Below are positions 7,862 to 27,813 of a stretch of DNA of 64,000 bases, piece by piece. The stretch is from a virus. The position numbers were made by a program, and so were the translations under genes. The notes below the pieces were generated by a model. The model was not told the DNA's origin. It was given only the letters and a program-made list of their open reading frames with translations, and did no database searches. The stretch's first letter is position 1. Every line of letters starts with the position of its first letter. The stretch lies in the IMG/VR virus record IMGVR_UViG_3300025131_000006. One strand, given 5' to 3'.

Positions 7862-10800
7862 ATGTCCGAGCCTGTTGAAACAGTTGAGTCTCCTGATTTG
7901 AGTCCTTCTCCGGAAGCCCTTGATCAGCATGCATTTATGGAGCAGTACCACAAAGAGGATGGTCCGGGGGAGGGAGGGGAACATCAGGTGCGCGATCTGA
8001 TGCGGGATAACTCTTGGGTGCGAGCAGCACATCTTCCGGTGAATCACAGCGAAGCAGGATGGAAGGCGGGTCGAAGAATGCCAGAGGGCATTGATCCGGA
8101 GCACGGGGAGATGTGGGATGGTTTTCGGACAGCCAACAAACTCTCCGCTTTCCATGGAGAGGAGCCGATCCATCCAGATGATTACAGGGAGATGTTTGAA
8201 TCCGACAGGGAAGCACGGGATCAGCATCGTGAATCTGTTTCGGTCTCCGACGTTCTGGGGGGATTTGGCTTGGAGTTGGGGAGGAAGAGTAAGCTTGACT
8301 CCGAGCCCGTTCAAATGGTTTCGGAGGAGCTTGGTCGCCTCCAAGGGGCGGGGATGTCCTTGTCGTCTCCGGGTTATCGTGGGGCTATAAAGTTAGAGAT
8401 GCAGTCACCAGACGACGATCCTGAGTATTGGGCGTATGGCCTGTTGAGAGGTGAGTACTTACCAAAGAAACACGCAATCCGCGTTGACCGCAGCGGTGAG
8501 TCTTTCGCACATGAGTGGTTTCACGCGGTAGATGGCGACTTGGGTTTGCCGAAAAGTTGGTGGCGCCGGGCAGCGCAAAAAGTAAAGACGGCTTTTGATT
8601 TTACCAAATTTGCGGCATCTAATGGTCAAGGAGATAGGCCAGAGTCGAGACACTTAGAGAGCTTTGTGAAGTTCCTTTCGACGATACCAACTGTGCAAGA
8701 GAGATGGGATCGGTCTTATTCGACGGAGTCAAGACCTGGGATGTTGGATTGGTTGCAAGGGGATATGCCGGAAGATCCTGGAAAGGACTTGGCCGAGTAT
8801 ATGTTGTCTCCGCACGAGGTGTGGGCACGATTCGGGGCACAGTTGGTCTCATACAGGTCGGCTGTTGCAGTTGCTCAAGGTAGATTGGCTCACCCGACCT
8901 TGTTGGCAAACCCATACAGTGAGTTGTTGAAAGATCCAGGTCATTGGACACATGAGGAGTTCTCTCGCATCGTGAAAGTATGGGAGAGATCTCCTCTCTC
9001 GAAGATGTTGGAGTCGGGGATAAGAAAGGCTCTTGGGTTTGGGGTGTTCTTGAAGTCTGAGGGCGAGCAACTGTCGCTGCCGTTCTCTATACGGGCACAC
9101 ACTCCAGGTGGCAGTGCTCCGCCTGCTGTCTCGCCACCAACACCTGTTGCGGATTCACCAGGAAGTTCAGTCACTGAACATTCAGGGACGGGCGGTGCAG
9201 CAGTTTCCAACAGCACGACCACCGATTCCTCTCCTGAAGTACCAACGGAAATAGTCCCGCCAGAACTGACCGGGGAGTGGGAACAGGCGGGAGGTGGCGT
9301 GCGGCATCGCGTAAAGGGCTATGTTCCCGTTATGTCGCATCCAAAATACGAAGAGATCGATCTTCATCCAGGGGCTTCTGCGAACGCGAGAGCCCATGCT
9401 TATCGGAATCGACGGGTATTGGAGGAGCCGAAAGTTGTTGATCATATGCCAATCCATGAGTATGGACACAGCGGCCTACATCAGGAGCGGGGGTGGGACG
9501 ATATACCGGGCCGATCCATACATGATCTGGAGGAGATTAACCGCCGGGGTGTGTCGATGCAGCACAGGTATCCATCGGTGGCATCGGTCGAGTTTGAGCC
9601 GGAAGAGATCTATTCGGCGATGGATGGTTTGCAAGCAGAATTCGAGCATCGATTCCAATCACAGCTTGGGGTGGTTAATAAGCACAAATACAAGGCACAA
9701 GTTCCCGACCACGGATTTTCGTTTGCCAATGAAGAGTCTGTGCGGAGTCCGGCACAGGTGGCAGCGGCGACATCTGCTTCGCTGTGGACAGGCGGGAAGG
9801 TCGAATATGTGCGCAATCCGGACCTTTGGGACTCAAACGAACTCGACAAGGAGAGCGTGGGAGGTCCTGGTGGGTGGGAGGGAGAGAGGACGGAAGAGAA
9901 TTACAGGATGGCGCATCGGGTGATGACACAGTTGGCACAACGTCAGGGTGACGAGACAGTGTCAGTTGCTCGTGGGATGGCCATTCCAAGTCATCACGTG
10001 CCAGGGTTTTTGGACAAGATGGACTTGGGAGACATCTCAAGCTGGACCAAGGGAAGTAATTATCAGCCCACTATGACTTTTGTGAGTCATGCCTTGGATC
10101 ATGGGTTTTGGGACGAAAGTCACCTTGAGTCTTTTGAGCACCAGCTTCGGGAAGGGCTGGAGCAGTCGGGGAACTTTGAGGAAGGAAGCGACGAGGTAGA
10201 TCAATTACTCGAAGAATATTTCGAGCACCACGGCGGGCCATTGGGGAACAATGGTGATGCTGACATTTTTGTTGAATTGGACATGGACAGTGAGGTGCGT
10301 CACTTCCGAGAGAGTAATCTTGGGCATTACTCTTCTGGCATGGCAGCAGTCGTGTTGTTGGCCGATACAAATATTGGAACGACACTGAACCACATCTCAG
10401 CTTATCCGGGTGAGTGGGAGCATGTGCTCGGAGGAGAGGCCACGGTGCGCGACGTGCGAAGGATTCCCTCTTGGGATTCAGGTGAGTGGGACGAGGAAGA
10501 TTTTTGGGACCATGATGAAGATGATTATGCCGCTCGCGAAGATCACCCAGCGTACGGAGACACAGGAGAGAAATTTACGGAATTCACGGGTGCCAATGAC
10601 CATCTTGTAGGTGGTCTCGAAATTTACGTTATCAAAGTCGAAGTGGCGCCCAAGTCCGAAGTAAAGAAGGGTCTCTCTCAAAAGGAGAAGCCCAAGCCGA
10701 AGACGTTCCAAGATTGGGTGGATTGGAACTTGAATATAAATCTTCCTCGAAAAGGCAAGGAGGAGCCGAGCACGAACAAGGACGAGAGAAAAGAGCAGCC

Positions 10801-13285
10801 TGTTATCACCAAGGGACCGACTTGGTCGGGGCATAAGTTGCAAGGGCGTGCGAAGGTCGAGGGTATGGACATCTCGATCGAAAACGCTCGCGGCAGCGTT
10901 CGTTCCGGCGTGGACCCGGATGGGAACAAGTGGGAAACGAAGATGCGCGATCCGTATGGGTATATCCGTCGGACACTTGGCGTGGACGGTGACCACTTGG
11001 ATTGTTTTTTGGGACCGCTTGCTCGGCGCCAAGCCGCAGGAGAGGATGTCGAGATCCCAAAGGTGTGGGTTGTTCATTCAAGAGACATTGAGACGGGTAA
11101 ATACGACGAAGACAAGGTGATGTTGGGGTACAAGGGGAAGAGCGAGGCTGTTTCTGCATTTCGGCATCACTATACTGACCCGGACCAGCACATAGGTCCG
11201 GTGTCCGAGTTCACGATGGAAGAGTTCAAGCATCGGATCTCCGACACGATGGAGAACCCGCGAAGATTGGGTCGTGGACGCTGGGTTAGAAAGTCGGAAG
11301 ATGAGTCGCGGGCTCCAAGCTCTCCCTTCTCTGCCAGTGATGCTTCGCAGAGGGCACCGTACCACGTCCAAGACGAGCCCTATAGAGCACCCCAGGCCCA
11401 CGCACCGACCCAGGACGCAAACACGTCGTGGCAGCCCCATTGGGCTGCTGTGGCCCCCACCGCAGAAGCACCGACGGAAGACAACGTGCCCAAAGAGGAA
11501 CTTGTCCCACAAGAAGAACCCCCTCACGCACCGTGGCGTCACATCAGCTTGCCCCACGAGGAATTATGGGAGGAGACGGCATACGGGGAGACGAACCAAG
11601 CTGAAGCGCAGCTTGATACAGGTGATATACAAGACGAGACGTTTGCACCCGGACCTGAATTCCCAGGACAAGACGACAATCAGGCGTCCGACGACAACGA
11701 AGAGAGTGCTCCGGCAGACCCGAAGCCGACTCAAACGCCAGCGTCGAGGACTCGATTCGCTGCTCAAGAGGCTCGTGAGTCTCGTGCCAAAGCATTCAAA
11801 GAGCAGCACAAGGGCTACGAGATACCGAGCTTGACAGAACTTTTGCATCACAACGAAGAGTACGATCACGACATCCACGTGAGCCGTGGGTGGTTTGGCC
11901 AGACTTATGTGGACAACAAGTGGAGTCCAGAGGGAGGAAGTCAAGGTCAAGTACTCGTGAAGTACGGGATTATGTCAGAAGAGGAGCAAGCCATTGCCAC
12001 GGAAGTGGGGGAGTTGGGGATTGGCCCGGTGGTTTTGGACTCCCACGCGGGTCTCGTAGACATCGATGCCAACAGTCCAGGTGTTCGGCAGCTAGAGAGC
12101 TACATCAGCCAAATGCGAGATCGTGGGATTGTCCGGGGCGACTCCGGGGCAGAGCACGAAGGGATGGGGTTGAACACAAACCATCCGTTTGCTGTGCCGG
12201 ACAGCGGGCGCCATAACCGACGAGCCCACTTGGGAGATGCCCTTGACGAGCACAGGGGCGAGTATGACTTCGACATCGAGGAGCGTCGGAATGAGCTTTT
12301 CGAAGGCACGTTGGGGTCTTTGGGCATTGAAGCATACAATGACGATGACCTGATGGCGGATTACGAGCCAAAGGATGTTTTGTATGAAGTGCAGGGGATG
12401 GAAGAGGATGACCCCGACGCTCCTTATAACTCAGACATCTATTGGGGAGAACCGGAGTTCGGTGCCTACTTGGCGGATGTGGTTCGCATGGTGGGTGGAG
12501 ATGAGTATGCAGTCGAAGATGTGGAGCAGACGTACGAAGAGTTGATGGAGATGCAGCGCTTCGCGGACGGCGAAACGAACGGAGACCTGGACGATCACGT
12601 GTTGGAGGCGGGCTTGGAGATGGGCTTGTACCACACGACGTCGATGCTTGAGCGAATCCGGAGCTTACTTAACATAAACAAGCTCCCTGTTGAGAACTTC
12701 CAAATGGGCGCTCGCATGGCGATGGAGTACTTGGAAGGGTACGAGCCGGTGGATGGTCTCTTCGGGGATCAGTACAGTTTCGACTCCGGCGACGTGGAGC
12801 CAGAGACAGCGGACGACGCGGACAAGTGGGTGCGGGCGAGCTTGGGCATCTTGGATATGATGTCCATTTTTCACGGAGAGGGCCTGACCCACGGAGATTT
12901 ACACACGTATAACGTGATGTGGGACGGAGAGGTGGGGCGTTTGATTGATTTCGGGATGGCGCAACGGTACGACCAAGACTCATTGGATTGGGGAGCCTAC
13001 CAGAACTTGCTTGTGAACTTACAGAAGGGTCTGAAGACGATGAGCATGCGGGGAGCAGCGGAGGCGGGCTTGTCGGGAGACAGTCGGATTGCAATGGAAG
13101 CCGGGATGCACAATCTTAGACAAGAGGTCAATGAGCTTGCAGGCAAAGTCACGGATGCACTGACGGACGCTCCAAGAGGAAAGCAGCGGCTGACTATGTA
13201 CTATGGCGACTTTGCCGAGATGGTTCGCGAGAAGACCTTGGATGTCTCCCAAGCGTACCATGAGCTACGATCGAAGTATCTGTAA
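7862..13285 (+). CDS. large polyvalent protein: zincin + ADP-ribosyltransferase + inorganic pyrophosphatase + protein kinase-like domain
   Basis: FAHEWFHAVD..EVWARF (zincin); ARGM..ISSWT..EWEHVL (R-S-E ART); ISIEN.RGS.RSG.D.DG..W....YGYIRRT.G.DGDHLD..DEDKVMLG (polyvalent-type PPase); MEYLEG..HGDLHTYNVM..IDFG (kinase). Alternative GTG start at 7850. Confidence 0.85.
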   Translation: MSEPVETVESPDLSPSPEALDQHAFMEQYHKEDGPGEGGEHQVRDLMRDNSWVRAAHLPVNHSEAGWKAGRRMPEGIDPEHGEMWDGFRTANKLSAFHGEEPIHPDDYREMFESDREARDQHRESVSVSDVLGGFGLELGRKSKLDSEPVQMVSEELGRLQGAGMSLSSPGYRGAIKLEMQSPDDDPEYWAYGLLRGEYLPKKHAIRVDRSGESFAHEWFHAVDGDLGLPKSWWRRAAQKVKTAFDFTKFAASNGQGDRPESRHLESFVKFLSTIPTVQERWDRSYSTESRPGMLDWLQGDMPEDPGKDLAEYMLSPHEVWARFGAQLVSYRSAVAVAQGRLAHPTLLANPYSELLKDPGHWTHEEFSRIVKVWERSPLSKMLESGIRKALGFGVFLKSEGEQLSLPFSIRAHTPGGSAPPAVSPPTPVADSPGSSVTEHSGTGGAAVSNSTTTDSSPEVPTEIVPPELTGEWEQAGGGVRHRVKGYVPVMSHPKYEEIDLHPGASANARAHAYRNRRVLEEPKVVDHMPIHEYGHSGLHQERGWDDIPGRSIHDLEEINRRGVSMQHRYPSVASVEFEPEEIYSAMDGLQAEFEHRFQSQLGVVNKHKYKAQVPDHGFSFANEESVRSPAQVAAATSASLWTGGKVEYVRNPDLWDSNELDKESVGGPGGWEGERTEENYRMAHRVMTQLAQRQGDETVSVARGMAIPSHHVPGFLDKMDLGDISSWTKGSNYQPTMTFVSHALDHGFWDESHLESFEHQLREGLEQSGNFEEGSDEVDQLLEEYFEHHGGPLGNNGDADIFVELDMDSEVRHFRESNLGHYSSGMAAVVLLADTNIGTTLNHISAYPGEWEHVLGGEATVRDVRRIPSWDSGEWDEEDFWDHDEDDYAAREDHPAYGDTGEKFTEFTGANDHLVGGLEIYVIKVEVAPKSEVKKGLSQKEKPKPKTFQDWVDWNLNINLPRKGKEEPSTNKDERKEQPVITKGPTWSGHKLQGRAKVEGMDISIENARGSVRSGVDPDGNKWETKMRDPYGYIRRTLGVDGDHLDCFLGPLARRQAAGEDVEIPKVWVVHSRDIETGKYDEDKVMLGYKGKSEAVSAFRHHYTDPDQHIGPVSEFTMEEFKHRISDTMENPRRLGRGRWVRKSEDESRAPSSPFSASDASQRAPYHVQDEPYRAPQAHAPTQDANTSWQPHWAAVAPTAEAPTEDNVPKEELVPQEEPPHAPWRHISLPHEELWEETAYGETNQAEAQLDTGDIQDETFAPGPEFPGQDDNQASDDNEESAPADPKPTQTPASRTRFAAQEARESRAKAFKEQHKGYEIPSLTELLHHNEEYDHDIHVSRGWFGQTYVDNKWSPEGGSQGQVLVKYGIMSEEEQAIATEVGELGIGPVVLDSHAGLVDIDANSPGVRQLESYISQMRDRGIVRGDSGAEHEGMGLNTNHPFAVPDSGRHNRRAHLGDALDEHRGEYDFDIEERRNELFEGTLGSLGIEAYNDDDLMADYEPKDVLYEVQGMEEDDPDAPYNSDIYWGEPEFGAYLADVVRMVGGDEYAVEDVEQTYEELMEMQRFADGETNGDLDDHVLEAGLEMGLYHTTSMLERIRSLLNINKLPVENFQMGARMAMEYLEGYEPVDGLFGDQYSFDSGDVEPETADDADKWVRASLGILDMMSIFHGEGLTHGDLHTYNVMWDGEVGRLIDFGMAQRYDQDSLDWGAYQNLLVNLQKGLKTMSMRGAAEAGLSGDSRIAMEAGMHNLRQEVNELAGKVTDALTDAPRGKQRLTMYYGDFAEMVREKTLDVSQAYHELRSKYL
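9165..9179. repeat. 15-bp palindrome, site 4 (inside CDS linker)
   Basis: GTTCAGTCACTGAAC encoding SSVTEH. Confidence 0.9.
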
Positions 13286-13302
13286 CCAAACCAGGAGCAA
13301 GA

Positions 13303-13521
13303 ATGAATCCCAAGCGAGAACGAAGCCCCCAGGCCATCGCAGCCCAGATCTTGGGAGAGCGAAAGATGTTGGTGCGCGAGCTTCGCGGCACAGATAAGAG
13401 CGAACACCCTGAGCGATTTCAAGACCTGACCGACAAAATTAGTGCTTTGACGAAGAAACTGTCTGAGCTTCCGGAGAAGCCGACGTCGCGGACGATTCAG
13501 GCCGCTCTGATGTCGAACTGA
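13303..13521 (+). CDS. small helical protein downstream of polyvalent gene
   Basis: 72 aa, AGGAG RBS. Confidence 0.7.
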   Translation: MNPKRERSPQAIAAQILGERKMLVRELRGTDKSEHPERFQDLTDKISALTKKLSELPEKPTSRTIQAALMSN

Positions 13522-13530
13522 GGTGCAGTG

Positions 13531-14766
13531 ATGAGTCCAAAAGACGGTGGTTTTGGGGTATTGCGTAAGAGCGAGGAGCACGACAGCTTCCAGTCGAGCA
13601 GTTATGCCGTACCAAGGGAGCAGATGACGTGGCGTCCTCCCACGCCGAATATTCCGGGCCGCCCTGTTTCGCCTCCAAGTGGGCAGCCCCAGGAACAGGC
13701 CCCGATCACTCCGCCCCCGGTGCAGCCCGGCACAGAGACTCCGACTCCAGAAGACGCTGCGTCGATGCCGAGCTTTCACGATCGTGATCATGGATGGATG
13801 TCGCATCTGTTGCCATCCCAGGAGCATGCGAACAATATGCCGGGGCATACGAAGATGGACAGCGACCAACTTTACATGCACCACAGCTTCGCAAGGCCAT
13901 TCACCGATCTGTCCCAGTTTGATGGTGTGGACTCCAGAGTTGAGCACCGAACTGTACAGATGGGTGACAGGGAGTTCCACCAAGCCAAGGGAGACTTGTC
14001 GCACGAGGCGGTCCACATGGGGAGCTTTGAGAGGCGTTTGGAGCGGGGCCTTGACGGTGGTTTGGAGTTGCACAACGAGCACATGTTGGTGAACCCAGAG
14101 TTCCGGGGCAAAGGGTATTCTTCCCAGTTTTATGCACGCCAAGAAGACTACCTCCGGCAATTGACACAGCACTTGCCGGAGCAAGAGAAAGCAAAGACGC
14201 GGGTCACAATGTTGGCGGATGTGGTGATCGGTCGATACCAATGGATGACGCAGGGGTATCGATTCTCCGATCATGCGACTCGTTCAGACGTCGTGCGCAG
14301 TTGGCATTCTCAATTGGAAGACCTGTTGGCGGGTCACGCGGGCATCGTGGGTCCGGAGGCGGGCAAGAAGAAAAAAGATGTGACGTGGGGCGACTTGCAG
14401 TCGATGGAGCCGAGGTCGTTGGATGACTTGGGGCTCCGCGAGTCTGCGGAGGAGTTGCGGGATAAACTGTGGGACGCACAATATGACGAGAACATCGAGC
14501 CGTGGGACTTGTTGGCGATGGATCCTGGACACCGTTTTTTGATGAGGGCTTATTCGCAGACGGACGAGCAGAACGTTGTGCCGGGCTCGCTGATCAAGTT
14601 CTTGGCGTTGTGTGGTCCGGATTGGTCTGCGGTCAAGTACGTTCATGGTCCCACCGAGAAAGACCAAGAGGGCATCGAGTTCGGCGACGAGCGGCGCCAT
14701 CGAATGGCACAGCACGCCCATCGTTCGGGTCGCCCGTGGGGGTGGTTGCAGTCGCAAGACAAATAA
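13531..14766 (+). CDS. GNAT-family acetyltransferase domain protein
   Basis: VNPEFRGKGYSSQF (acetyl-CoA motif A), then ADVVIGRYQW..QGYRF. Confidence 0.75.
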   Translation: MSPKDGGFGVLRKSEEHDSFQSSSYAVPREQMTWRPPTPNIPGRPVSPPSGQPQEQAPITPPPVQPGTETPTPEDAASMPSFHDRDHGWMSHLLPSQEHANNMPGHTKMDSDQLYMHHSFARPFTDLSQFDGVDSRVEHRTVQMGDREFHQAKGDLSHEAVHMGSFERRLERGLDGGLELHNEHMLVNPEFRGKGYSSQFYARQEDYLRQLTQHLPEQEKAKTRVTMLADVVIGRYQWMTQGYRFSDHATRSDVVRSWHSQLEDLLAGHAGIVGPEAGKKKKDVTWGDLQSMEPRSLDDLGLRESAEELRDKLWDAQYDENIEPWDLLAMDPGHRFLMRAYSQTDEQNVVPGSLIKFLALCGPDWSAVKYVHGPTEKDQEGIEFGDERRHRMAQHAHRSGRPWGWLQSQDK

Positions 14767-14781
14767 TCTCTGTCTATATAT

Positions 14782-14997
14782 ATGGGAACACCGCACCACG
14801 GGAGAGGGAAAATGGAAGATTGGGAACGGAGAGCACGGCAGAGGATTGAAGAGGGAACATACAACGACGGCTTCGGATGGTCCGACATCGGGGGCTTTAC
14901 GGCGAGCGAGTTGCGGACTCTGCGCGAGCAACACGAGGAAGCCGAAAAATCCCTTAGAGATGCGGATGATCCGGGTGTTCTCGAAGAGAAAGATTAG
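14782..14997 (+). CDS. small acidic protein
   Basis: 71-aa ORF directly after the GNAT gene; true start may be the internal ATG (MEDWER). Confidence 0.55.
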   Translation: MGTPHHGRGKMEDWERRARQRIEEGTYNDGFGWSDIGGFTASELRTLREQHEEAEKSLRDADDPGVLEEKD

Positions 14998-15048
14998 ATC
15001 GCAGAACTTGCAATAACGGGCATGGGTGTATTATAAGATTGACGTGGG

Positions 15049-15063
15049 GTTCAGTCACTAAAT
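15049..15063. repeat. 15-bp palindrome, site 5
   Basis: GTTCAGTCACTAAAT (1 mismatch). Confidence 0.85.
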
Positions 15064-15084
15064 TCTCACCCCAAGGTGATTCCA

Positions 15085-16716
15085 ATGCCCATAGAAAATC
15101 CATCGTCACAATCTTTGCCAAAAGCAGGAGTCGTGCCTGCACCGGGTTCCGGGTTTGGAGTTGTTCCGAAAGGGGATGGTACGTCGCGACCTCCAACGTC
15201 GCCAAAGATTGAAGTGGGGGAAGACCTCAGTGTTTCCGATCCATCGGGGTTTGGAGTGCAGTCTCGAAGCCAGGATGTTCGAGGATACGCCCATCCGTCT
15301 GTGCCTGTGCCAGGAGCACAGAGCTTGGAGGAGACGAAGCAGCCGAATATTCCTGTAACAAATGAAAACTTGCCAGGAGAGCGTATCTTCCCCAGTGGTT
15401 ATCCTGCTCCGGCGGATGGGTTGCCACCTGTAACGCCGGAGCAGCTAGAGGCGGACTACCATCAGTTTATGGATAACAGAAGAGCAGACTTGGAGCAGGC
15501 CATACTCCAGGCCAACAGTTCTATTGATCCGCACTCGGATCACTATTCTCGTGTTTTGGAATACGAGCTTTTGGACCATGATCTGAATACGCACGTGGCG
15601 GGATATGCTCATCGTGAGAGACAGGGAGAGAGCCCAACTCAAACGATGGATCAGGTGATGGAGGAGAAAGAGAACGTCAGGAAAATGCACAAGTTGGAGG
15701 CGGAGATTCGAGAGAATGCACCGGATCTCCAGCTTCATGTAAGACAGCACAGCATACCACGGGGCCAAAGCCAATCTGTGTTGAGGGGTTTGGCCGACAA
15801 GACCACGGGTCACGGCACTCCGTGGATGCGAGGGTCGTTTTACAGCTTGTCTCCGCAAGATCAGGATATGTTGGAGGCGATTGCTCTGTTTACAGACGGG
15901 GCCTTTACGAAAGGGCTGCGTGACCCTCATCTTATGGCAGCCGATAATCAACGGGACTCGTTCAGGGGCGTTGTGTCAGGTGCTCGCTTTGCCGACGGAT
16001 CGAGAGTTCAGTTTCACCCGACAAGCAGGGGCTATGTGAAGGCTCACCAAATACTCCGAGAGCTAGGGGCCTCTCCGTACGAAGCAGAGGACGGTGCTTT
16101 GTTTCGCGGAATGACCTTACCGGTAGAGACGATAGAGCATCTCTTGGACGGCGACGAATTCGATCTCCAGGGCGTGAGTTCTTGGACGGATAGCCGAGCC
16201 GATGCTTTGGATTTTACAGCAGGGACTCGACATCCCGGTGTGTTGTTTGTGTTGGAGGAGCCGAAGTGGGGAACAAATATATCGAGATTGAGCAATTTTC
16301 CTCGCGAACGAGAGACAGTCGTGGGTGGTCGTGTCCAGGTGGTGTCGTCTGAGATGTCTGTCCATAACGATGTTCACGTGATTCGCGTCACACACATAGG
16401 GCAGCCGGAGAGCATTATGAAGTCAAAAGATCGTGAGCCAGGACACTTGGACGTTATCGAGCGTGAGTTCCAGCAGATAATGCCTCACCAGCGTAGGAAT
16501 CGCATGGATAGAGAGATGGCACGACGTGCTCAAGCAGAAGAACAAGAGGAGTCGGGCTTCGGTGTTGTGACTCGTGATTCTGAACAGGAAGACGAGGAGA
16601 AGTCTCTTGCGGGGGTTTCTCGGCATATGGTGCAGAGGTTGGCGAAGGAGTCTGTGCGAAGACGCGGGCTTCAGCCAAAGCCCGATGGAGTTTCGGCAAA
16701 GCCACCGGTCACGTGA
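15085..16716 (+). CDS. ADP-ribosyltransferase domain protein
   Basis: LFRGM..GVSSWT..NISRLSNFPRERETVVGG; similar to the ART in 7862..13285. Confidence 0.8.
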   Translation: MPIENPSSQSLPKAGVVPAPGSGFGVVPKGDGTSRPPTSPKIEVGEDLSVSDPSGFGVQSRSQDVRGYAHPSVPVPGAQSLEETKQPNIPVTNENLPGERIFPSGYPAPADGLPPVTPEQLEADYHQFMDNRRADLEQAILQANSSIDPHSDHYSRVLEYELLDHDLNTHVAGYAHRERQGESPTQTMDQVMEEKENVRKMHKLEAEIRENAPDLQLHVRQHSIPRGQSQSVLRGLADKTTGHGTPWMRGSFYSLSPQDQDMLEAIALFTDGAFTKGLRDPHLMAADNQRDSFRGVVSGARFADGSRVQFHPTSRGYVKAHQILRELGASPYEAEDGALFRGMTLPVETIEHLLDGDEFDLQGVSSWTDSRADALDFTAGTRHPGVLFVLEEPKWGTNISRLSNFPRERETVVGGRVQVVSSEMSVHNDVHVIRVTHIGQPESIMKSKDREPGHLDVIEREFQQIMPHQRRNRMDREMARRAQAEEQEESGFGVVTRDSEQEDEEKSLAGVSRHMVQRLAKESVRRRGLQPKPDGVSAKPPVT

Positions 16717-18609: not shown

Positions 18610-18614
18610 GAGAG

Positions 18615-19829
18615 ATGGAACAGATGGACGATCTTAAGATTGGAGGAGAAGGTCCGGCTTCTGCGGAGGCTCAGGGAGTGCAGGGAGAGGCATCCAGTAA
18701 GCTGCCGTTTCCTCACCCTGTGGCGAATTCGAACGATCTCTCCGGGGCAAGTCGAGACGATCTGGTGAGCCATTATGAGCAGAGGAGCACAGAGCTAAAA
18801 GACCAAGAGATGTTCCAAGCGAGAGAGGCTATGGAACGGGGGGGTTCCCCAGAGGTGGAGCTTGTTCCTTCACACATGCATAGGTATGAGAAAAAGAAGT
18901 TATTTGGAGGGTCGCCACCGCGAGAGCATTCAAAGGAGGCTTGGAAGAGGGTTATTGGCACCGGGAAGAGCCCTGCTTGGGATTGGTATGCTGACTCCCA
19001 AATGCGTGCTGCGGAGGAAGGCCAGCCCCCGACACATATGGATGATTGGATTGAGCAGTGGATGGAGAAGCACAGAACCTCCGTCACAGAAGAGCACAAG
19101 GAGGATGTTCGCAGCGGTGCATTCGCCGAGCGCCGTGGGGTTGATTTGAATGGGGTTGGTGGGGATGTCAGTGTTCATGTGGCTGAAGCGCTTGAGGATA
19201 ACCTGTTAGCACCTCTTCCCAGGAACAGAGGGGCGTTAGGGGTCGTCCATCACAGAACGGGCAATGAGTTCGTGCGTTATGGGGATCTTTACATGGGGGC
19301 GTATCATGTAAAGCAGCACACTATTGAGATTGGGACTTCGGGAGAGTCCTTCGCTCACGAGTTTTTCCACGCTCTAGACAGTGATACGGGTTATAATTGG
19401 TGGGGTAGGGTCAAGATGGAGTTCGGGACTCCTGTGTATGCTTCGGAGGGGTCGGGGCGAACTCCTGAGGCTCGCGAGCTTGCAAAGTTTACCCACCTTT
19501 TGGGGCACTCTTTGAGCAAGACAAGAGGGAGGCACTTAAAAGATTTGTCTCCTGCGGCGAAGAGGTATTTTTACGAGCCGAAAGAGTTGTTGGCTCGATT
19601 TGGAGAGCAAATGGTCTCCCATCTTTCGCACCTGCACGCTGCCCATGGGGTTCACTCAACAGCAACAAAGTTGGCGAAGGACATTGACCATTACTACCAC
19701 AGCCCTGTTCATTGGGACAAAAGAACGCTCCAGGCTCTCCTCCATGTATGGGGTGGTCTGTCTGTCGGAAAGAGGATGCTTGGCGACGTGGAGAAAGCTT
19801 TTGGGTTCGGTGTAATGGTGAAGCTGTAA
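18615..19829 (+). CDS. stand-alone zincin-like (HExxH) protein, paralogue of the N-terminal domain of 7862..13285
   Basis: SGESFAHEFFHALDSD...ELLARFGEQMVS...KAFGFGV vs SGESFAHEWFHAVDGD...EVWARFGAQLVS...KALGFGV. Confidence 0.8.
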   Translation: MEQMDDLKIGGEGPASAEAQGVQGEASSKLPFPHPVANSNDLSGASRDDLVSHYEQRSTELKDQEMFQAREAMERGGSPEVELVPSHMHRYEKKKLFGGSPPREHSKEAWKRVIGTGKSPAWDWYADSQMRAAEEGQPPTHMDDWIEQWMEKHRTSVTEEHKEDVRSGAFAERRGVDLNGVGGDVSVHVAEALEDNLLAPLPRNRGALGVVHHRTGNEFVRYGDLYMGAYHVKQHTIEIGTSGESFAHEFFHALDSDTGYNWWGRVKMEFGTPVYASEGSGRTPEARELAKFTHLLGHSLSKTRGRHLKDLSPAAKRYFYEPKELLARFGEQMVSHLSHLHAAHGVHSTATKLAKDIDHYYHSPVHWDKRTLQALLHVWGGLSVGKRMLGDVEKAFGFGVMVKL

Positions 19830-20312: not shown

Positions 20313-20330
20313 GGGGGAGAAGGGAGGGGA

Positions 20331-21530
20331 TTAGATGGGGGTGGCGACGACGCGGGTGAGTTTGGTTTCTCGGTTTCCGCGATAGGTGTCAACGGCTTTG
20401 ATGGTGGCTTTGATTGCGTATGTGGCTCCTCGCTCGATGTCGGGGCATCCGGAGGCGAACCAAGTGGCGACGCGGCCAAGGGCGTCACGGAATTTGCAGA
20501 TAGTGGTGAGTCCGTAGTATCCTTCGCTCGGAAAGGTTCCGATGCAGGTGGCTTCCCATTCGGGGAGTGCGGAGACGCCGTTGTCACGGTCTTTTTTGGA
20601 GAGTTTTCTGCCGATCTTGTCACCTTCGCCGCCGAGCCATTCGGAGGGGGGCAGGGCGGCATCGGCGGCTTTTTCTGCTTCGCGGTTGAGGTGCCGCTCA
20701 TAGGCAGGGATGGCAGCAGCGACGATGCCGATGTTTTTGACTTCGCAGGTTTCCATGGAGCAAGCGACGCGGAGGTTGTGGAGGAAGTCGTTTTTGGTGT
20801 CTTCGGGGAGGGAGGACGCCCAAGCGGTAGCAGCGATGCCGGTTTCGATGTCGGCCTGTTCGGGTCTGTTGGCCTTGAGGCAGAGAGCGTTGAAGGCTTG
20901 GTCAGCCGTGGACTCGCCGGACCAAGATGCTTTGCCGCGACCGAGGAAGCCATAGAGTCGGATTTCACGGGCCACGTAACCGAGGTAGGTGGCGATGCCG
21001 ATGCGGCGATCGGAGGTGTCGTATCGACCTTCCATGTTGAATCTTTGGCAGTCGCGAAGGAAGCTCAAGCGATCGGCGATGTCGGAAGCGGTGGAGAGTC
21101 CAAGGAAGTCGGCGAGGCAGTTGCGACCGACGCGGATGAACGAGCCGTCTTCGTCGTTTTGGAGGACAAAGGTTTCCTTGCGACGCCGTTTGGTGTGGCA
21201 GTGGTCGCAGGAGTTCTTTGCTTCGCGGAAATCGACGGGGAGTTCCACGGAGGTTTTGGGGAACATGTTGATGATATTCCCGGCAGACTCGTGTTGGACG
21301 ACGGCGATGGGGGTGAAGCCCTCGATGACGATCGAGGGCGTATCGACGAGTTCGCCGATGTGATAGAGTTCAAAGAGCCCGGTGGGTCCGAGAACATCGT
21401 GGATCTCGACTTCGTCGGTGCCGGTCCACTCGTAGGAGGGAGGGGTCAGGCCAAAAGAGATAGCTTTTTTGATGAGGCGTTTGATGCGGCGTTCGAATTT
21501 TTTCTTGTTGGTGTCGTGGATGCGAATCAT
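20331..21530 (-). CDS. phage hypothetical protein with Cys/His cluster and OB-like C-terminus
   Basis: CDHCHTKRRRK...VGRNCL.DFLG; C-terminal IKATIK...YRG..ETKLTRV. Confidence 0.75.
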   Translation of the reverse strand: MIRIHDTNKKKFERRIKRLIKKAISFGLTPPSYEWTGTDEVEIHDVLGPTGLFELYHIGELVDTPSIVIEGFTPIAVVQHESAGNIINMFPKTSVELPVDFREAKNSCDHCHTKRRRKETFVLQNDEDGSFIRVGRNCLADFLGLSTASDIADRLSFLRDCQRFNMEGRYDTSDRRIGIATYLGYVAREIRLYGFLGRGKASWSGESTADQAFNALCLKANRPEQADIETGIAATAWASSLPEDTKNDFLHNLRVACSMETCEVKNIGIVAAAIPAYERHLNREAEKAADAALPPSEWLGGEGDKIGRKLSKKDRDNGVSALPEWEATCIGTFPSEGYYGLTTICKFRDALGRVATWFASGCPDIERGATYAIKATIKAVDTYRGNRETKLTRVVATPI

Positions 21531-21531
21531 T

Positions 21532-21678
21532 CTATTCTTCCTCTTTGAGTTCGACGGTGAAGCTTTCGCCTTCGGCGATGTCAGCTACCATTTTGATGAT
21601 TTCCGTTCGGGAGATGTCGGCTGACCAGATGTCTGTTTGGCCATCTTCCCACTTTATTTCCCAGTATTTTTCGCTCAT
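21532..21678 (-). CDS. small acidic protein (48 aa)
   Basis: MSEKYWEIKWEDG..., first gene after promoter copy 4, GGAG RBS. Confidence 0.55.
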   Translation of the reverse strand: MSEKYWEIKWEDGQTDIWSADISRTEIIKMVADIAEGESFTVELKEEE

Positions 21679-21708
21679 CTTTTCTCTCTCCGTCTTGGAA
21701 TGTTCGAC

Positions 21709-21745
21709 TGTAATGGCTTTCTCCCCGTTCTATTTTGCGGTGCAA
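21709..21745 (-). promoter_or_regulatory. conserved 37-bp promoter-like motif, copy 4
   Basis: TTGCACCGCAAAATAGAACGGGGAGAAAGCCATTACA on minus strand. Confidence 0.75.
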
Positions 21746-21762
21746 ACCGGAGGGGTTATCTT

Positions 21763-21777
21763 GTTCAGTCACTGAAT
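21763..21777. repeat. 15-bp palindrome, site 7
   Basis: GTTCAGTCACTGAAT (1 mismatch). Confidence 0.85.
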
Positions 21778-21864
21778 ATTGTGCTTGGATTCTGTACATA
21801 TCTATGGTGATTCGTGTATGGTGTCGGTGGGGTACAGGGCAGCATCACTCTTGGAGTTATTGAT

Positions 21865-24800
21865 ATGGAATTGGTTTGCATCGAATGCTTATCAGGTGGC
21901 TTCGGCTTGTTTGTGAAAGGTGCGGGGCACAAGTACATCAAGCGCGAGTTGGTTTCGACTTCTCCAAGAAAGTATCGGTATTGGTACAAGCTCCCCAGAG
22001 GAGCCTTGGTGCATGATGACGCCGTTCACGTGGGCGCCAAGTTCCGTCATGGTTCCGGTGACGATCGCGGGCACTATCACGTAGACGAGGTCCATGATGA
22101 TGGCTCGGTCAGCGTTACCCACGATGAGACCGGACATACGACCAAAGTGTCTGCACACAAGCTCAAAGACATGATCCACACGGGTGATCATGATCTAGGT
22201 GAATCTCCCCAAGAGAAAGGGGAGCGGGTGCTCCAAAGCTACCAACAGGCTCTCCAGACGGGCACAGACAAGCAGATCTCGCTGCGCTTACATGATCTGA
22301 TGGAGCACGTGGCGGCTTATCCGCAAGAGTCGGTGTCGTTGGGTTATGCGTTGGCTCAAGCAGATCCAGGCGTCAAAGAGGCCATGTTGTCATTGGCTCA
22401 TGGTGGGGTGTCCACGTTCAAGACGCACAAGTCCACAAAGAAGCGTGGAAAGAAGGGCGAGAAAACAAAACACGGTGGAGCACACGTCGAGGTGACGTTG
22501 GAGCACCGTTCGTATGGAAAGATCGTCGAGGATTCGGCCAAGCAGTTGGAGCAGTTGGATGAGTCGGCGATTGTTCAGGAGATCCAAGAGAAGACGGGCG
22601 CCACAGAAGACGAAGCCAAGCAGGCGTTCTTGGCTGTAAAGAACAGCTTGGCAAAGAAGCAGAACTCTTCGAATGAGGGGGCATCGTATCTGGAGCCCTT
22701 CACGATAGACGGCGAGTCTGTTCCGGGCGTTTTTGTTTACAGTGGGAGTAATGAGAGCAAGAAGGGAACTCTTTATGTTCGCGGACTGATCGAGAACGAA
22801 GACGTGTTGGACCCTGGGTTTGGACCGGCTCCGAAGTCTGCGAAGCCGGGTAAGGTTCTCGCTCGTGCTCAGGCTGTCATGCGGTCCAAGTTGGACATAG
22901 GCCGGGTGCGTCAATACACGTTGACGCCGAGTGCTTTGTACGAGTGGTCACACGCTCCGGCAACCGGGGCAGACTTCAAAGAGGTTGATGGAGGGGCTGC
23001 TGATCAGGATAGCCTAGCTAGCCAGGCAGATTCCGGGTCTAAAAGTTCAGTCACCAAACAGTCTCACAAGGAAAGTTCGGACCTGGCTAATAGCCAGGTC
23101 GCCGAAGAGTCACCAGATGAGTTGGACGAGAGCTTGCCTTCCGGCAGCGAGGGTCTTCAATACGAGGGTGCCAAAAAAGGAGGTCAGTACCCCGGAGCAA
23201 TCGTGAGTCACCCAGACTTCCCCGACAAGCAGTTTATGGTTAAGCCAGGACGGGATTTTTTGGTGCACGCAGAAGTTGCCGGTACGAATCTGGCGGCACG
23301 AGTGCTCGGCGACGATGTAGCCAAGGCACGTCATATCGATGTAGGTGGAGCCCCGCAATCGATCGGAAAGGGCCAGCAACACGCATCGATTCAAGAGATG
23401 CGCGAGAACGACGGAGATTTGGTCTCCAATCGATATGACAGTCACATGATCCGGAATCTCCCGCAAGAGTTGAAACAAGATGTGCTGCGTCATCAGGTGG
23501 CGACGTGGTTGGTGGGTGATTCGGACGCTCACGCCGGGCAGTTCTTGCGTGGGACCGACGGGAGTTTGATTCGGATTGACTTGGGTCAAGCGTACAAGCA
23601 CATCGGCAACGATCGGCTCGATCCGAGCTGGCAGCCGAACAATCCCCCGCCGGTAGTATCCCATCTGTTGGTGGGCGATTACGCAAAGGGCCAGGGAGAG
23701 TTGGACTTCACGGACCCCCGGATCAAAGAGGCAGTGGAGAGAGCCGAGTCCATCACAGACGATGAGGTGGCACAAGCAGTCCAGCCGTATGCCGACGGTT
23801 TGGAGAAATCGGGTATTCGCTCTGCGAAAGAGACGATCGCGAAGGCAGTGGCTCGAAAGAACGGCATCCGGTCTGACTTCGAGCAGTACTTCTCCAAGGC
23901 ACTCTCGCAGCGACACGGCAAGCCGATGACGTTTTCGTTTGAGGACGGCATCTCGGAGGGCGGCGTCTCTAAGGGTTTTGGGGTGTGGAGCAAGAGTGGC
24001 ACTCCGGTGGAAGATGCAGACGACTCGACTGAAGCACCGACGAGGTTTCACGGTGCCAAGTTGTTTTATATAGAGCCTTTGATGGAAGAGCCCAAGGGTT
24101 TCGGGGCTCTCACGAAGGGCAGTAAGCATAAGTATGTGAAGCGAGAAGTTCGTATTGGACCTGATGGCAAGAAGCGTTATCGGTATTGGTATAAGCTCCC
24201 CAAGGGACATATCGTGACCGACGACTCTCTTCATATAGGTGCCAAGTTCCGCCACGGTAAGGACGAGGAGCGGGGGCACTTTCATATCGAGAGCATAAAT
24301 CCGGATGGGACAATGAACGTTCGGCATGATGAGACCGGAGAGTTCAAGAAGGTCACGCTCGACAACTTGCGCGGGATGATCCACACGGGAAGCCACGACA
24401 TCGGAGAGAACCCTGCGAGCAAGCTCCAGCGGTTGTTGGAGTCTTTGCACTTAGCGTTGCAGCACGGGACGAAAAAGCAGTACAATAAGCTGTACGAGCA
24501 TGTGATGGAGCACGTGGAGGCGTTTCCTCATATCGCGTTCGAGGGGAACGAGCCTGTCACATCGGACCATGTGCAAGATAAAATGGCGGATGTGTATTCG
24601 GCGGGCAAGCTGTCAGAGCACTTGGACGACCACGAGCACTTGTCGGATGAGGTGAAGTACCAGGGCTTCTTTGCGGAAGCCAAAGCATTGGCCGAAAAGT
24701 ATCATGATGCCTTGGTGGAAAAAGCTAGAGAGGCGGGTGCTAAGGGGTCTTCGTACACATATTGGATTATCAATGAGGCAATCTTTAAAAAGTTAAACAA

Positions 24801-27800
24801 GGAGCAGTCTGCTCTCTTCGAAAAGTACAAAGATGCACCAAAAAGTGTAAAGACATCGGTAGTTGCGTCCCACTTGGGGTCTTCTGTAAAGGGTGTTTCC
24901 CCGCTGATCTCCGAGCTTCAAGCAGCCCATGCGGAAGGGAGTCAGTCGTTTAATGCCAGCGTTGACGAGGTTCACAAGAAGGTTGTTCATATTCGAGGGA
25001 TGGTGGAGTCGGGTCAGCTTTACGCCGATATTTGGAAAGAGCTTGAGGATCTGCGAGAGCATGTGCTCAGCTTGTCGGGTGAGGTCCAACACGAGTTGGA
25101 AGATTCGTACGACTTCCTGTGGACGACAGAGGGCTTGAAAGGAAAGCTGAAGCAGTGGAAGGGGCAAACCTCGTACGGGACGCATGAATATGTCGATCTC
25201 GTGCATATGGGCTTCAATGGTGTCCTGAAAGACATGTCGAAGGCGAAGGCTCTTCAGTACATCAAAGACAACGTGACGTGCGAGTATCACTCGGAGGAAG
25301 AGGCTCTCAAGATCGTGGGAGACTCGTACGATGCGACGGCAGCGACGTTTTTGAATGTCCAAGCCAAGCTCGATTATTTGAAAGACTTGATCGAGTCGGA
25401 GTCAGACAACGCGGATATTTGGGCAGCGGCTGAAGTGCTGTTTATGGAGCTTTCTTCGACAGGGTTGTTTAAGCACCCGGCGTTCGAGGAGATGAAGACG
25501 TGGAAGAAAATCTCGAAGTTTGTGAAAGAGGGCATCGAGGAAGCAGCGAAGTCGCCTACGGACAGTCCGCAAATTCCTGGGTACAAGTATGATGCTCTTT
25601 ACCCCATGGGCTTGGGTGTCAACACTACAGTCTTCGGCACGGTAAAGAAGGAGAACCCCTACGTTAAGCTTGTGAGCGGTAGCGATACCACAAGCCACGA
25701 GGTGTGGGCAGAGGGGATTGATACAAAAGGGAACCCTGCGTACATCCATGTGGGAACAATGGTTCCTGACGAAACATACCCCGATTTGATGCATTGCTTT
25801 ACTCCTGCGGGGAATGAGATCAAGTCAAAGGGCAAGATACCCAAGGGCCTCAAGTGGGGAGGGAACTTGCTTGTTTGGTTCAAGGTGAACGTTACCGAGC
25901 CAAAAGAAGAGTTCACCGATGGCGCCGAGGAGGAGTATCAAGCGTTCTGGGGAGCGACGCCCTTGGGTATAATGACGGGCAAAGGTACACCGAGCGACGC
26001 ACCGGAGCCAGGGTCTGAGTCTGAGTCGGGCGAGAGTTCAGTGACTGAACCGTCGGATGCTGCTCCGGATAGTTCTGATTCTGATGCAGAGCCAAAACCA
26101 GGTAGCCCGGACACAGCATCCGAGACGAGTGCTCCAGCACCGACGCCCAAGAAGAAAAGCATCTTGCAGGGCAAGAAGGCGGTGAAGCATGGGACATTGG
26201 TGACAGGTGGCCAAGTTGCCAAGAAAAAGAACAAAGAGACAGGCGGGTGGCACATTGTTGCGGAAGCCCAACATGGGAACAAGACCGTCGCAAAGGTGAT
26301 TGGCTCGATCCACAAGAAGGGGAGCAAGTGGTACGCGGATAATTCGCCGGAGATAGGAGGCTTCAAGACAGCGGGTGCGTTGATTGAGGTGATGCAGAAC
26401 AAGGCGTTGGATGTCCAAAACAACCCGCCTGCTCCTCCGGTGTCAGAGCAGACACCCCAAGACAAGGTGTCTCAGCTTATATCAGAGTTGAAGACCGTCC
26501 TCGATGCTGGCGATATGTCGGATGATGTGATCTCCACATTCTTTTACAAGATCGAGCAATTGGCGGCCAATAATTACGGTTTGATGCATGATGGCCAGCC
26601 TGTGACCAATAAGCCGTTCTTGTATCAGTTGGTGATGGATGCGGGAACTGCGGGCAACTTAGACAATGCCGAAGGATGGAAGGTCTGGTCTGAGCACAAG
26701 AATAAAGACATCAACGCAGCCGTGTCAAAGCCCAAGGCTCCTGCCGATGTCTGGATGGCTATTCAGAAGGAGACCAACGCAGCCGCGTACAAGAAGCAAC
26801 AGGCCGAAGTGGCGGATAAGTACAAGGCCCATGGCCACCTCATCGAATCCCCACCGGCTATGGGTGGGTTTGGAGCACTCCAGCAAGACAACACATATGC
26901 AGATGGGTCAGTTGGGGCTATTCGTGCGATCCACGATCATGTTCGAGAGAAGTACAACCTCGGCAGCATCTCAGCGAAGCATCACAACAAGCGAAAAGAT
27001 GTCATCGCAGCGTTGTTCCCGGCGGAAAACTCCACGGTGAGTAGCTGCGCGGCGACTTGGACGACGACATCAAACCCCATCGGGTACGGTGGGAGCTTGA
27101 ACAATAACGTAATGTTTCGGTTCTTCTCGATCGCTATGGGCTTGCGGAACTTAGAGGAGGAGATCAGCAAGCTCAAGGATATTTATGGGATGAAACCGCA
27201 GCACGAGCAGCGGTTTCGCCAGGAGTACGCAGAATTTGTCGATCCCTCTCACAGCAGGTTCCGCCAGTTCGAGTGTTTGTTGTTACGTCATGTGGTCTGG
27301 CGAGATGCCGTGATGGCAAATGGCGGAGAGGGAGTAGATACGGCAACGGGCACGCTTCACCTCTTCCGAGGCATGGGCAAACTCTCGAAGGATTATGTTG
27401 ATGGTCTGAGAGAAGGAAACTTGGGTCAGACTTCGGCTGCAAGTTGGTCTACCGTAAAGAGCGTTGCCAACAGCTTCAGCGGCGGGGGCTTTGGAAGCTC
27501 TAGCTATTCGGTAGTGTTTGAGGCCGATAGTGTTCCGATTGAGCACTGTCTCTTGGGTAAACACACAGAAGGAATTGGGTTCGGCAGCGAGAAAGAGGTG
27601 ATTGTTGGAACAGCCCACAAGTCGAAGACCGTTCATGTTTACGTGAAGCCACCAGGGATGGATAAAGAAACAGTGATGCAGGAGAGGAACCTCCCCGGTG
27701 GTACTGTTGTAACGCACAAGTCTCTTGCTCGCGGCGGATTTATCTTGGGCGTGGTGAAGAATTCGGGCTTCCGGACTATTTCGAAGAGCCGGTATGGATC

Positions 27801-27813
27801 GGCGTACGATTAG
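21865..27813 (+). CDS. large polyvalent protein: duplicated HKYxKRE..YRYWY domain, HipA/PI3K-like kinase, C-terminal ADP-ribosyltransferase
   Basis: Internal repeat starting at ~21925 and ~24120; FMVKP..AEV..WLVGDSDAH..F..IRIDLG (kinase); LFRGM..AASWST..SEKEVIV (ART); ATG 21865 after GGAG. Confidence 0.8.
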   Translation: MELVCIECLSGGFGLFVKGAGHKYIKRELVSTSPRKYRYWYKLPRGALVHDDAVHVGAKFRHGSGDDRGHYHVDEVHDDGSVSVTHDETGHTTKVSAHKLKDMIHTGDHDLGESPQEKGERVLQSYQQALQTGTDKQISLRLHDLMEHVAAYPQESVSLGYALAQADPGVKEAMLSLAHGGVSTFKTHKSTKKRGKKGEKTKHGGAHVEVTLEHRSYGKIVEDSAKQLEQLDESAIVQEIQEKTGATEDEAKQAFLAVKNSLAKKQNSSNEGASYLEPFTIDGESVPGVFVYSGSNESKKGTLYVRGLIENEDVLDPGFGPAPKSAKPGKVLARAQAVMRSKLDIGRVRQYTLTPSALYEWSHAPATGADFKEVDGGAADQDSLASQADSGSKSSVTKQSHKESSDLANSQVAEESPDELDESLPSGSEGLQYEGAKKGGQYPGAIVSHPDFPDKQFMVKPGRDFLVHAEVAGTNLAARVLGDDVAKARHIDVGGAPQSIGKGQQHASIQEMRENDGDLVSNRYDSHMIRNLPQELKQDVLRHQVATWLVGDSDAHAGQFLRGTDGSLIRIDLGQAYKHIGNDRLDPSWQPNNPPPVVSHLLVGDYAKGQGELDFTDPRIKEAVERAESITDDEVAQAVQPYADGLEKSGIRSAKETIAKAVARKNGIRSDFEQYFSKALSQRHGKPMTFSFEDGISEGGVSKGFGVWSKSGTPVEDADDSTEAPTRFHGAKLFYIEPLMEEPKGFGALTKGSKHKYVKREVRIGPDGKKRYRYWYKLPKGHIVTDDSLHIGAKFRHGKDEERGHFHIESINPDGTMNVRHDETGEFKKVTLDNLRGMIHTGSHDIGENPASKLQRLLESLHLALQHGTKKQYNKLYEHVMEHVEAFPHIAFEGNEPVTSDHVQDKMADVYSAGKLSEHLDDHEHLSDEVKYQGFFAEAKALAEKYHDALVEKAREAGAKGSSYTYWIINEAIFKKLNKEQSALFEKYKDAPKSVKTSVVASHLGSSVKGVSPLISELQAAHAEGSQSFNASVDEVHKKVVHIRGMVESGQLYADIWKELEDLREHVLSLSGEVQHELEDSYDFLWTTEGLKGKLKQWKGQTSYGTHEYVDLVHMGFNGVLKDMSKAKALQYIKDNVTCEYHSEEEALKIVGDSYDATAATFLNVQAKLDYLKDLIESESDNADIWAAAEVLFMELSSTGLFKHPAFEEMKTWKKISKFVKEGIEEAAKSPTDSPQIPGYKYDALYPMGLGVNTTVFGTVKKENPYVKLVSGSDTTSHEVWAEGIDTKGNPAYIHVGTMVPDETYPDLMHCFTPAGNEIKSKGKIPKGLKWGGNLLVWFKVNVTEPKEEFTDGAEEEYQAFWGATPLGIMTGKGTPSDAPEPGSESESGESSVTEPSDAAPDSSDSDAEPKPGSPDTASETSAPAPTPKKKSILQGKKAVKHGTLVTGGQVAKKKNKETGGWHIVAEAQHGNKTVAKVIGSIHKKGSKWYADNSPEIGGFKTAGALIEVMQNKALDVQNNPPAPPVSEQTPQDKVSQLISELKTVLDAGDMSDDVISTFFYKIEQLAANNYGLMHDGQPVTNKPFLYQLVMDAGTAGNLDNAEGWKVWSEHKNKDINAAVSKPKAPADVWMAIQKETNAAAYKKQQAEVADKYKAHGHLIESPPAMGGFGALQQDNTYADGSVGAIRAIHDHVREKYNLGSISAKHHNKRKDVIAALFPAENSTVSSCAATWTTTSNPIGYGGSLNNNVMFRFFSIAMGLRNLEEEISKLKDIYGMKPQHEQRFRQEYAEFVDPSHSRFRQFECLLLRHVVWRDAVMANGGEGVDTATGTLHLFRGMGKLSKDYVDGLREGNLGQTSAASWSTVKSVANSFSGGGFGSSSYSVVFEADSVPIEHCLLGKHTEGIGFGSEKEVIVGTAHKSKTVHVYVKPPGMDKETVMQERNLPGGTVVTHKSLARGGFILGVVKNSGFRTISKSRYGSAYD
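23045..23059. repeat. 15-bp palindrome, site 8 (inside CDS linker)
   Basis: GTTCAGTCACCAAAC encoding SSVTKQ (1 mismatch). Confidence 0.75.
26036..26050. repeat. 15-bp palindrome, site 9 (inside CDS linker)
   Basis: GTTCAGTGACTGAAC encoding SSVTEP. Confidence 0.9.

Follow-up and report, generated by a model that had tools for sequence, protein, structure and literature searches.

Tagged multidomain enzymes encoded among the virion genes of an uncultured marine myovirus are candidate capsid-loaded, injected effectors

The head of bacteriophage T4 carries an ADP-ribosyltransferase (ART), Alt, together with other proteins, and a short loading peptide is removed from this cargo by the prohead protease. 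To our knowledge, the selection of such cargo for the capsid and its cutting have been worked out mainly for T4, P1, and the phiKZ/SPN3US group, and the polyvalent-protein idea itself rests mostly on comparative genomics. The T4 internal proteins, Alt, and the capsid targeting sequence have been reviewed (PMC3012670). Phage polyvalent proteins have been described as a class (PMC5512222, PMC7824862), and Iyer, Burroughs, Anand, de Souza, and Aravind (2017, PMC5512222) listed ART, kinase, GNAT, InPase, metallopeptidase, and LPD domains in them and proposed that the proteins are injected and their units released by proteolysis. For the giant phages SPN3US and phiKZ, ejection or inner-body proteins have been described as a head-packaged mass that enters the host and is cut by the prohead protease (PMC7411985, PMC10052503). 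Here, we analyzed an array of five genes for enzyme-like proteins, hereafter called cargo, that occupies about 20 kb (positions 7,862 to 27,813) of the IMG/VR virus record IMGVR_UViG_3300025131_000006. The whole stretch of DNA analyzed, of 64,000 nucleotides (nt), is called the window, and it comes from a very divergent large myovirus, uncultured and marine.

The region contains six genes on the + strand, A to F, of which A, B, C, E, and F encode the cargo, so that the five co-oriented genes described in an earlier, sequence-only note on this DNA do exist. All features below are on the + strand unless stated otherwise. Gene A (7850..13285, with an alternative ATG start at 7862) encodes a polyvalent protein of 1811 residues with an LPD1-like HExxH domain, an ART, an InPase, and a Ser/Thr kinase. 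Gene B (13528..14766, 412 residues) combines an N-terminal copy of a short tag with a P-rich linker and a conserved domain of 270 residues, gene C (15076..16716, 546 residues) harbors tags and an ART, and gene E (18615..19829, 404 residues) encodes a stand-alone LPD1-like HExxH domain with a C-terminal tag. Gene F (21814..27813, 1999 residues) consists of a leader, a module X, an atypical kinase, a second leader, two unnamed modules, and an ART. Its start is probably the ATG at 21865, giving 1982 residues, because both the database version of F and its homologues start from this Met, 17 codons in. Gene D (17086..18609, 507 residues), an adaptor (neck) candidate without a tag, lies between C and E and is thus enclosed by the array, and the cargo genes are located just upstream of neck, sheath, and baseplate genes. 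Gene A follows the stop codon of its upstream neighbor without a gap, and the start of E lies 6 nt past D; the cargo set, which is part of the late structural operon, is therefore operonic with structural genes.

We propose, with a probability of about 0.6, that A, B, C, E, and F are capsid-loaded, protease-processed, injected effectors. The proteins would be made late and taken into the prohead via the shared short tag and, in F, via the leader as well. The head maturation protease, the HExxH domains of the cargo itself, or both would then release single units by cutting at or close to the tags, the candidate site of the head protease being a hydrophobic residue, any residue, and Lys followed by a small residue (h-x-K then small). 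The units would be ejected with the DNA, whereupon host proteins would be ADP-ribosylated and phosphorylated and pyrophosphate or a nucleotide-like compound hydrolyzed. Such a payload may serve host takeover or anti-defence, as the earlier note had suggested.

As had also been claimed, phage polyvalent proteins (PMC5512222) contain these domain types, and the enzyme arsenal itself is not new in kind, because its domains are already listed and injection with proteolytic release is already proposed there. Like polyvalent proteins, the cargo has several unrelated enzyme domains per protein (four assigned in A; three plus the two leaders in F), contains the hallmark InPase, ART, and kinase (and LPD1, by ESM Atlas likeness only), and is encoded among virion genes, D lying within the array and the genes for neck, sheath, and baseplate following it. 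Unlike in polyvalent proteins, however, the set is spread over five genes and punctuated by a short shared tag, F is headed by a 140-residue leader that is absent from Pfam, and the family of the F kinase matches HipA_C and PI3_PI4_kinase but no polyvalent-kinase model. The features that set this array apart are its division among five tag-bearing genes, the tag itself, the leader module, and a fixed slot with exchangeable content. The proposed head-carried ART with a short loading peptide resembles T4 Alt and the internal proteins; the T4 signal is N-terminal only and cut after Glu, whereas our tag is N-terminal, internal, or C-terminal, with a candidate cut after Lys or Arg. Like the ejection and inner-body proteins of SPN3US and phiKZ, the cargo would be a large head-packaged mass that enters the host and is processed at a motif which the protease also recognizes in other head proteins; the sequences are unrelated, the motif is another, and so is the capsid lineage (phrog_752-type, in a relative). 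The enzymatic content of the window cargo is far more explicit than that of the ejection proteins described there. The locus therefore offers a compact testable case, with a defined tag, a leader found more than 50 times in other phages, a fixed slot with exchangeable enzymes, and a protease motif common to the capsid of a relative.

The tag, with the consensus G-F-G-[VLA]-x-x-K/R followed by a small residue, is carried by all five cargo proteins. GFG[VLA] was found 11 times in the 5172 residues of cargo versus 0 times in 13,254 residues of other window proteins, and 5000 shuffles of the cargo residues yielded a mean of 0.29 and a maximum of 4 occurrences. In a six-frame check, the sole further GFG[VLA] in a real gene was one GFGA, in the 49057 gene. 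Tags lie near the N termini at B8 (GFGVLRK, nt 13549-13569, preceding the P-rich linker), C26, C58, and F29. At domain ends, they are found at A396 (GFGVFLK, 9035..9055, closing the LPD1-like domain of A), C494, F721 (GFGVWSK, nt 23974), and F762 (GFGALTK, nt 24097), and a C-terminal one is present at E397 (GFGVMVK, nt 19803-19823), one residue before the stop. The three tags of C begin at nt 15151, 15247, and 16555. A tag-like GFGALQQ at F1685 (26866..26886), ahead of the ART of F, has no K/R. A further cargo-type gene of 879 residues (L002 773-3409) is located about 8.4 to 5.8 kb upstream of the window start and harbors a second B-like domain plus two near-C-terminal tags (GFVVKSG and GFGVVKKG), and the payload therefore exceeds the 20-kb region.

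In F, the tag opens each of the two leader copies (residues 18 to 180, 21865..22353, and residues 751 to 911, 24064..24546), which span about 140 residues and are 50% identical (E 7e-49). In the first copy, the tag GFGLFVK is followed by GAGHKYIKR...YRYWY...HDETG; the second opens with the GFGALTK at nt 24097. An exhaustive HMMER search with F 18-1200 as the query returned 972 proteins at E <= 0.001, most of them giant and many with the F-type kinase domain in tandem. Among the 150 best matches, the leader recurred in about 38, with one to four copies per protein, mostly N-terminal or at cassette starts. When 57 copies from about 40 proteins were aligned, K30 (the tag Lys), H34, Y36, R39, Y51, Y53, G81, H82, and H98 were invariant, the Lys directly preceding G-x-G-HKY. 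Other phages join the same leader to counterparts of B, E, the A kinase, the ARTs, and the InPase. No Pfam family and no PDB sequence match were found for the leader. Its model (pLDDT 80) shows a hairpin, a small beta-barrel, and three helices, with the tag segment disordered; Foldseek searches of PDB and BFVD with this model gave nothing at E <= 0.001, and VIA-align and the Atlas gave generic Tudor/SH3-like barrel and three-helix-bundle matches only. The possibility that the leader is a self-cleaving enzyme, acting via its conserved His, Asp, and Glu, was unsupported by these fold and sequence searches. Directly after the first leader, module X (F residues 181 to 440, 22354-23133) is basic and conserved in four relatives, where it likewise stands immediately behind the leader in every case, with no family and no PDB match.

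Two related phages allowed a comparison of the locus. The first is represented by three parts of one JGI record (L003, L005, and L006), the second by L004. In the first relative, the gene of a head protease (phrog_1028, 3.6e-37) is followed by a scaffold-like gene and then by that of the major capsid protein (phrog_752, 1.9e-94). Past the capsid gene come an opposite-strand block, a homologue of the window gene at 6956-7849, and five cargo genes, followed by two short genes of unknown function and then by a homologue of D, which is about 54% identical to it. The first of these cargo genes (L005 10001-12142) is topoisomerase-I-like (precomputed Pfam PF01028, eukaryotic-type topoisomerase I), and its product was also seen to carry GF-x-hydrophobic-K tags near the C terminus. 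The ART cassette of the same phage is flanked by the same tag, here VGFGI[KR]GRDGE, at residues 6 and 388. In the second relative, four leader-plus-cargo genes lie directly before the homologue of window gene 29232. The cargo content is thus exchanged between related phages at the same locus. The N terminus of the first relative's capsid protein reads GGFG...LQK-ALAAG, the C-terminal part of its protease contains ELK-ALAAA, and its scaffold-like protein has several hydrophobic-x-K-small sites. Upstream of this head protease, a separate 1304-residue protein (L006 3143-7054) has a degenerate leader hairpin (GGYKYIRR...WNYAY); it could belong to the portal side or be a minor head protein that employs the leader element.

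INPHARED gave no nucleotide or protein match for the cargo region, the tail sheath, or gene D, and IMG/VR gave no close relative for A, F, or the first relative's capsid protein. A search of a single metagenome gave a 1-kb fragment only, and word-based protein searches returned the window's own proteins, one distant match, and nothing else.

The three ART domains are located in A (residues 636 to 871, 9755..10462), in C (residues ~260 to 420, within 15076..16716), and in F (residues ~1790 to 1965, 27181..27708). They show weak pairwise likeness with their motifs in register and were united by an iterative search among fetched relatives. All three keep R, S, and ExE (R708, S730, and E855-W-E857 in A; R344, S368, and E411-R-E413 in C; R1852, S1877, and E1926-K-E1928 in F), and in a 13-sequence alignment (A5), R-G, S, and the second Glu of ExE were invariant. 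Searched against solved structures, the family profile matched Vis toxin (5.4e-16), ExoT (2.9e-9), and Tre1 (1.3e-8); ExoS, HopU1, and XopAI ranked lower, and the matches to SpvB (0.05) and Certhrax (0.16) were weak. R-G, S, and ExE align with those of Vis toxin, ExoS/ExoT, Tre1, and HopU1 (PDB 4xzj, 6gnn, 6dre, 3u0j); unlike these solved ARTs, the domain of A has an acidic insert of ~100 residues. In single-sequence Pfam scans (E <= 5), none of the three reached an ART model, and a single-sequence PDB search with the ART of C gave noise only. The ESM Atlas placed C among ADPrib_exo_Tox clusters (features 0.89, TM 0.54, using an Atlas model of C with pLDDT 0.58). The invariant motifs together with the profile match to solved ARTs uphold the call of three R-S-E ARTs.

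The InPase of A (residues 998 to 1129, 10841..11236) is family I pyrophosphatase-like, with DGDxxD present. It matched Pfam PF18823 well above the curated cut-off (E 1.7e-38, 132 bits versus 26.8) over profile positions 11-133 of 135, in good agreement with the pyrophosphatase originally predicted. The same stretch also matched PHROGs labelled minor head protein, virion structural protein, and DarB-like antirestriction protein. The Ser/Thr kinase-like domain proposed for A (residues ~1346 to 1811, 11885..13282) held up as well: HGDLHTYN at 1681 and DFG at 1700 are present, APH passed its Pfam cut-off while Pkinase stayed below (21 versus 31.7 bits), and a profile of this domain with two relatives, which carry canonical glycine-loop and VAIK-type motifs, matched more than 2300 solved Ser/Thr kinases (best 5.5e-9). 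By eye, we place the N-lobe of the A kinase at ~1346-1395, followed by an insert of ~215 residues; MAFFT placed it otherwise.

The atypical kinase of F (residues 445 to 745, 23146..24048, with the tag at nt 23974 close to its end) is defined by K477, D571-x-H573, D589, and Q592, all invariant in 42 aligned copies, with Gln where the D-x-H-x-x-N catalytic loop has Asn. The profile of this family weakly matched Fam20B (0.0047), Vps34 (0.013), and HipA (0.12), with the catalytic loops aligned, and HipA_C was matched by 12 and PI3_PI4_kinase by 5 of the 42 members. The domain in the window itself matched neither HipA_C nor PI3_PI4_kinase, nor anything else in a Pfam scan at E <= 5. The HipA/PI3K-like kinase of the earlier note is therefore a fair description at the level of the family, short of a demonstrated membership. 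Many giant metagenomic proteins (1000 to 6300 residues) carry the F-type HipA/PI3K-like domain twice in tandem.

The HExxH domains of A (residues 55 to 405, 8012..9064, HEWFH at residues 221 to 225) and E (within 18615..19829, HEFFH at residues 248 to 252) are paralogous, with 30% identity between A 63-402 and E 102-403 (E 8e-31). In a 7-sequence alignment of LPD1-like domains (A7), HExxHxxD and a Glu ~75 residues further on were invariant (H154, E155, H158, D161, and E230), and the corresponding profile matched anthrax lethal factor in its catalytic domain (3.1e-4), the HExxH motifs being in register. An AlphaFold model (pLDDT 69, pTM 0.72) runs from three strands to the HExxH helix and then to the Glu helix; the ligand residues of the alignment fall on helices 152-164 and 228-249, after the three-stranded sheet. 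Single-sequence Pfam scans at E <= 5 found nothing for either domain, LPD1 included. In the ESM Atlas, E lies beside LPD1 clusters (features 0.93; TM 0.65, normalised to the matched model), and one LPD1-bearing protein has the same HExxH and PxE..AR motifs. Both domains are thus probably, though not provably, zincin-like. Of the two zincins claimed earlier, an intact HExxH...E and a relation to LPD1 stand, while the zincin identity itself has moderate evidence behind it. Iyer et al. (PMC5512222) counted LPD1 among the domains whose function is elusive. The window family resembles Pfam LPD1 (PF18796) by Atlas likeness and by the shared HExxH and PxE..AR motifs; it differs in having no direct Pfam match, a gluzincin-type signature, and zincin-like best matches. 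The locus thereby suggests that Pfam LPD1, hitherto of unknown function, is a zincin-type domain.

The assignments proposed for B and D fared less well. The 270-residue domain of B has GNAT-like motifs (RGKG and Y..QGY) and belongs to a well-conserved family of ten copies, one more of which is found in the same phage upstream of the window. Two members of the family reached GNAT models weakly, B itself at E 0.07-0.1 and the other at 0.011; the second Gly of the acetyl-CoA loop (R/Q-x-x-G-x-G/A) varies within the family, and a family search against PDB matched no solved structure. With best E values of 0.01 to 0.1 and no PDB match, the GNAT in B could not be confirmed, and acetylation as one of the chemistries of the payload is consequently unsupported. 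Gene D matched phrog_772 among the PHROGs (3.9e-12), and its C-terminal 75 residues matched the adaptor/neck chain 8q01_b (E 0.0074). It is best read as a putative head-to-tail adaptor (neck) protein. A neck-like gene had been placed between the cargo genes, and D does lie there, but its neck identity has weak to moderate support.

Several observations weigh against capsid loading and injection as we propose them. Two GFG sites, A138 (GFGL, nt 8261) and F335 (GFGP, which does not match the consensus), coincide with conserved alignment columns inside folded modules and are unlikely to be tags, and no GFG tag separates the ART, InPase, and kinase of A. After the tag Lys, a single residue precedes the stop in E and six precede it in the upstream gene; cutting there would therefore achieve little, and the tag cannot be a cleavage site alone. 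These extreme C-terminal tags argue for recognition as a docking peptide, beyond a scissile site. The leader fold matched nothing informative, and the link between the tag and a capsid propeptide rests on one relative, the head genes of the window phage being outside the DNA analyzed. Finally, we infer packaging and cleavage, as we do ejection and the targets. Enzymes that are never packaged but act late in the cytoplasm of the producing cell, with a tag that docks a partner or marks turnover, would accommodate this last point and the tags at the extreme C terminus of E and of the upstream protein P0159. T4 ModA/ModB and the T7 kinase are models for such late enzymes. We nevertheless regard this explanation as unlikely: the genes form part of a structural operon, with the adaptor gene in their midst, the InPase segment matches PHROGs of virion proteins, the same GGFG element is present in the capsid propeptide region of one relative, and delivery together with the DNA is ascribed to polyvalent proteins that have these domains (PMC5512222).

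Who cuts the cargo is a related issue. It may be packaged and yet cut at the tags by its own LPD1-type HExxH domains rather than by the head protease, which would make the zincin-like domains processing enzymes and not effectors. Since each LPD1-like domain in the 7-sequence alignment ends directly in a tag or a variant of it, self-processing is a live rival; HExxHxxD and the distal Glu are invariant, and the same role was proposed for metallopeptidase domains by Iyer et al. (PMC5512222). We consider it improbable as a replacement for the head protease, and the proteolysis arm may process the cargo itself rather than attack the host. It is harder still to believe that the proteins are mainly structural, an inner-body or ejection mass like that of phiKZ and SPN3US in which the enzyme-like domains are non-catalytic relics. 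In favor of this reading are a cargo mass exceeding 5000 residues, long linkers of low complexity, and several modules that lack an enzyme signature. However, the catalytic residues are intact in the three ARTs, both kinases, the InPase, and both HExxH domains, and the cargo is swapped between related phages, unlike a structural core. The tag and the HKY leader could jointly constitute a transferable code for addressing and processing, such that an arbitrary enzyme located behind them would be loaded into the prohead, freed by the head protease at a site of the capsid-propeptide type, and injected, with the cargo swapped at a fixed locus between head and neck genes; the cargo types concerned are ART, kinases, InPase, HExxH domains, and a topoisomerase-IB-like domain. 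We put this extension forward tentatively, at slightly less than even odds. Were it true, the injected effectors of uncultured phages would become predictable and chosen proteins could be loaded into phage heads.

As for the surroundings of the array, the gene directly before it (6956-7849) encodes a 297-residue Ig/CarboxypepD_reg-like protein that is 50% identical to the product of the relative's gene at the same position. Downstream of the region are genes for a Dam-type methylase, a virion structural protein (phrog_1004), the tail sheath, and the baseplate. An opposite-strand gene of 399 residues (20331..21530, - strand; phrog_2319, E 1.2e-58) lies between E and F and is not part of the cargo set; like the duplication of the leader in F and several unassigned modules, it had gone unmentioned in the earlier note. 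Its product is a conserved hypothetical protein in 157 phage records, from large phages of Vibrio, Aeromonas, and others, and one record labels a homologue RecT-like. The + strand open reading frame at 20691-21548 was rejected as an antisense shadow of this real gene. The stop codons of A (13283-13285), B, and E (19827-19829) are TAA, and past the TAA of B, 76 in-frame codons remain open (14764-14994) and include GFG-like residues. Read-through across B, C, and D, which share a frame, was set aside, as the frame is interrupted by several different stops. The 15-bp palindrome RTTYAGYNRCTRAAY occurs at 19 sites in the window, between 105 and 61654, versus 0.02 expected. It is mostly intergenic, with two copies inside A and F, and in the cargo region it is found at 9165, 15049, 16717, 21763, and 26036.

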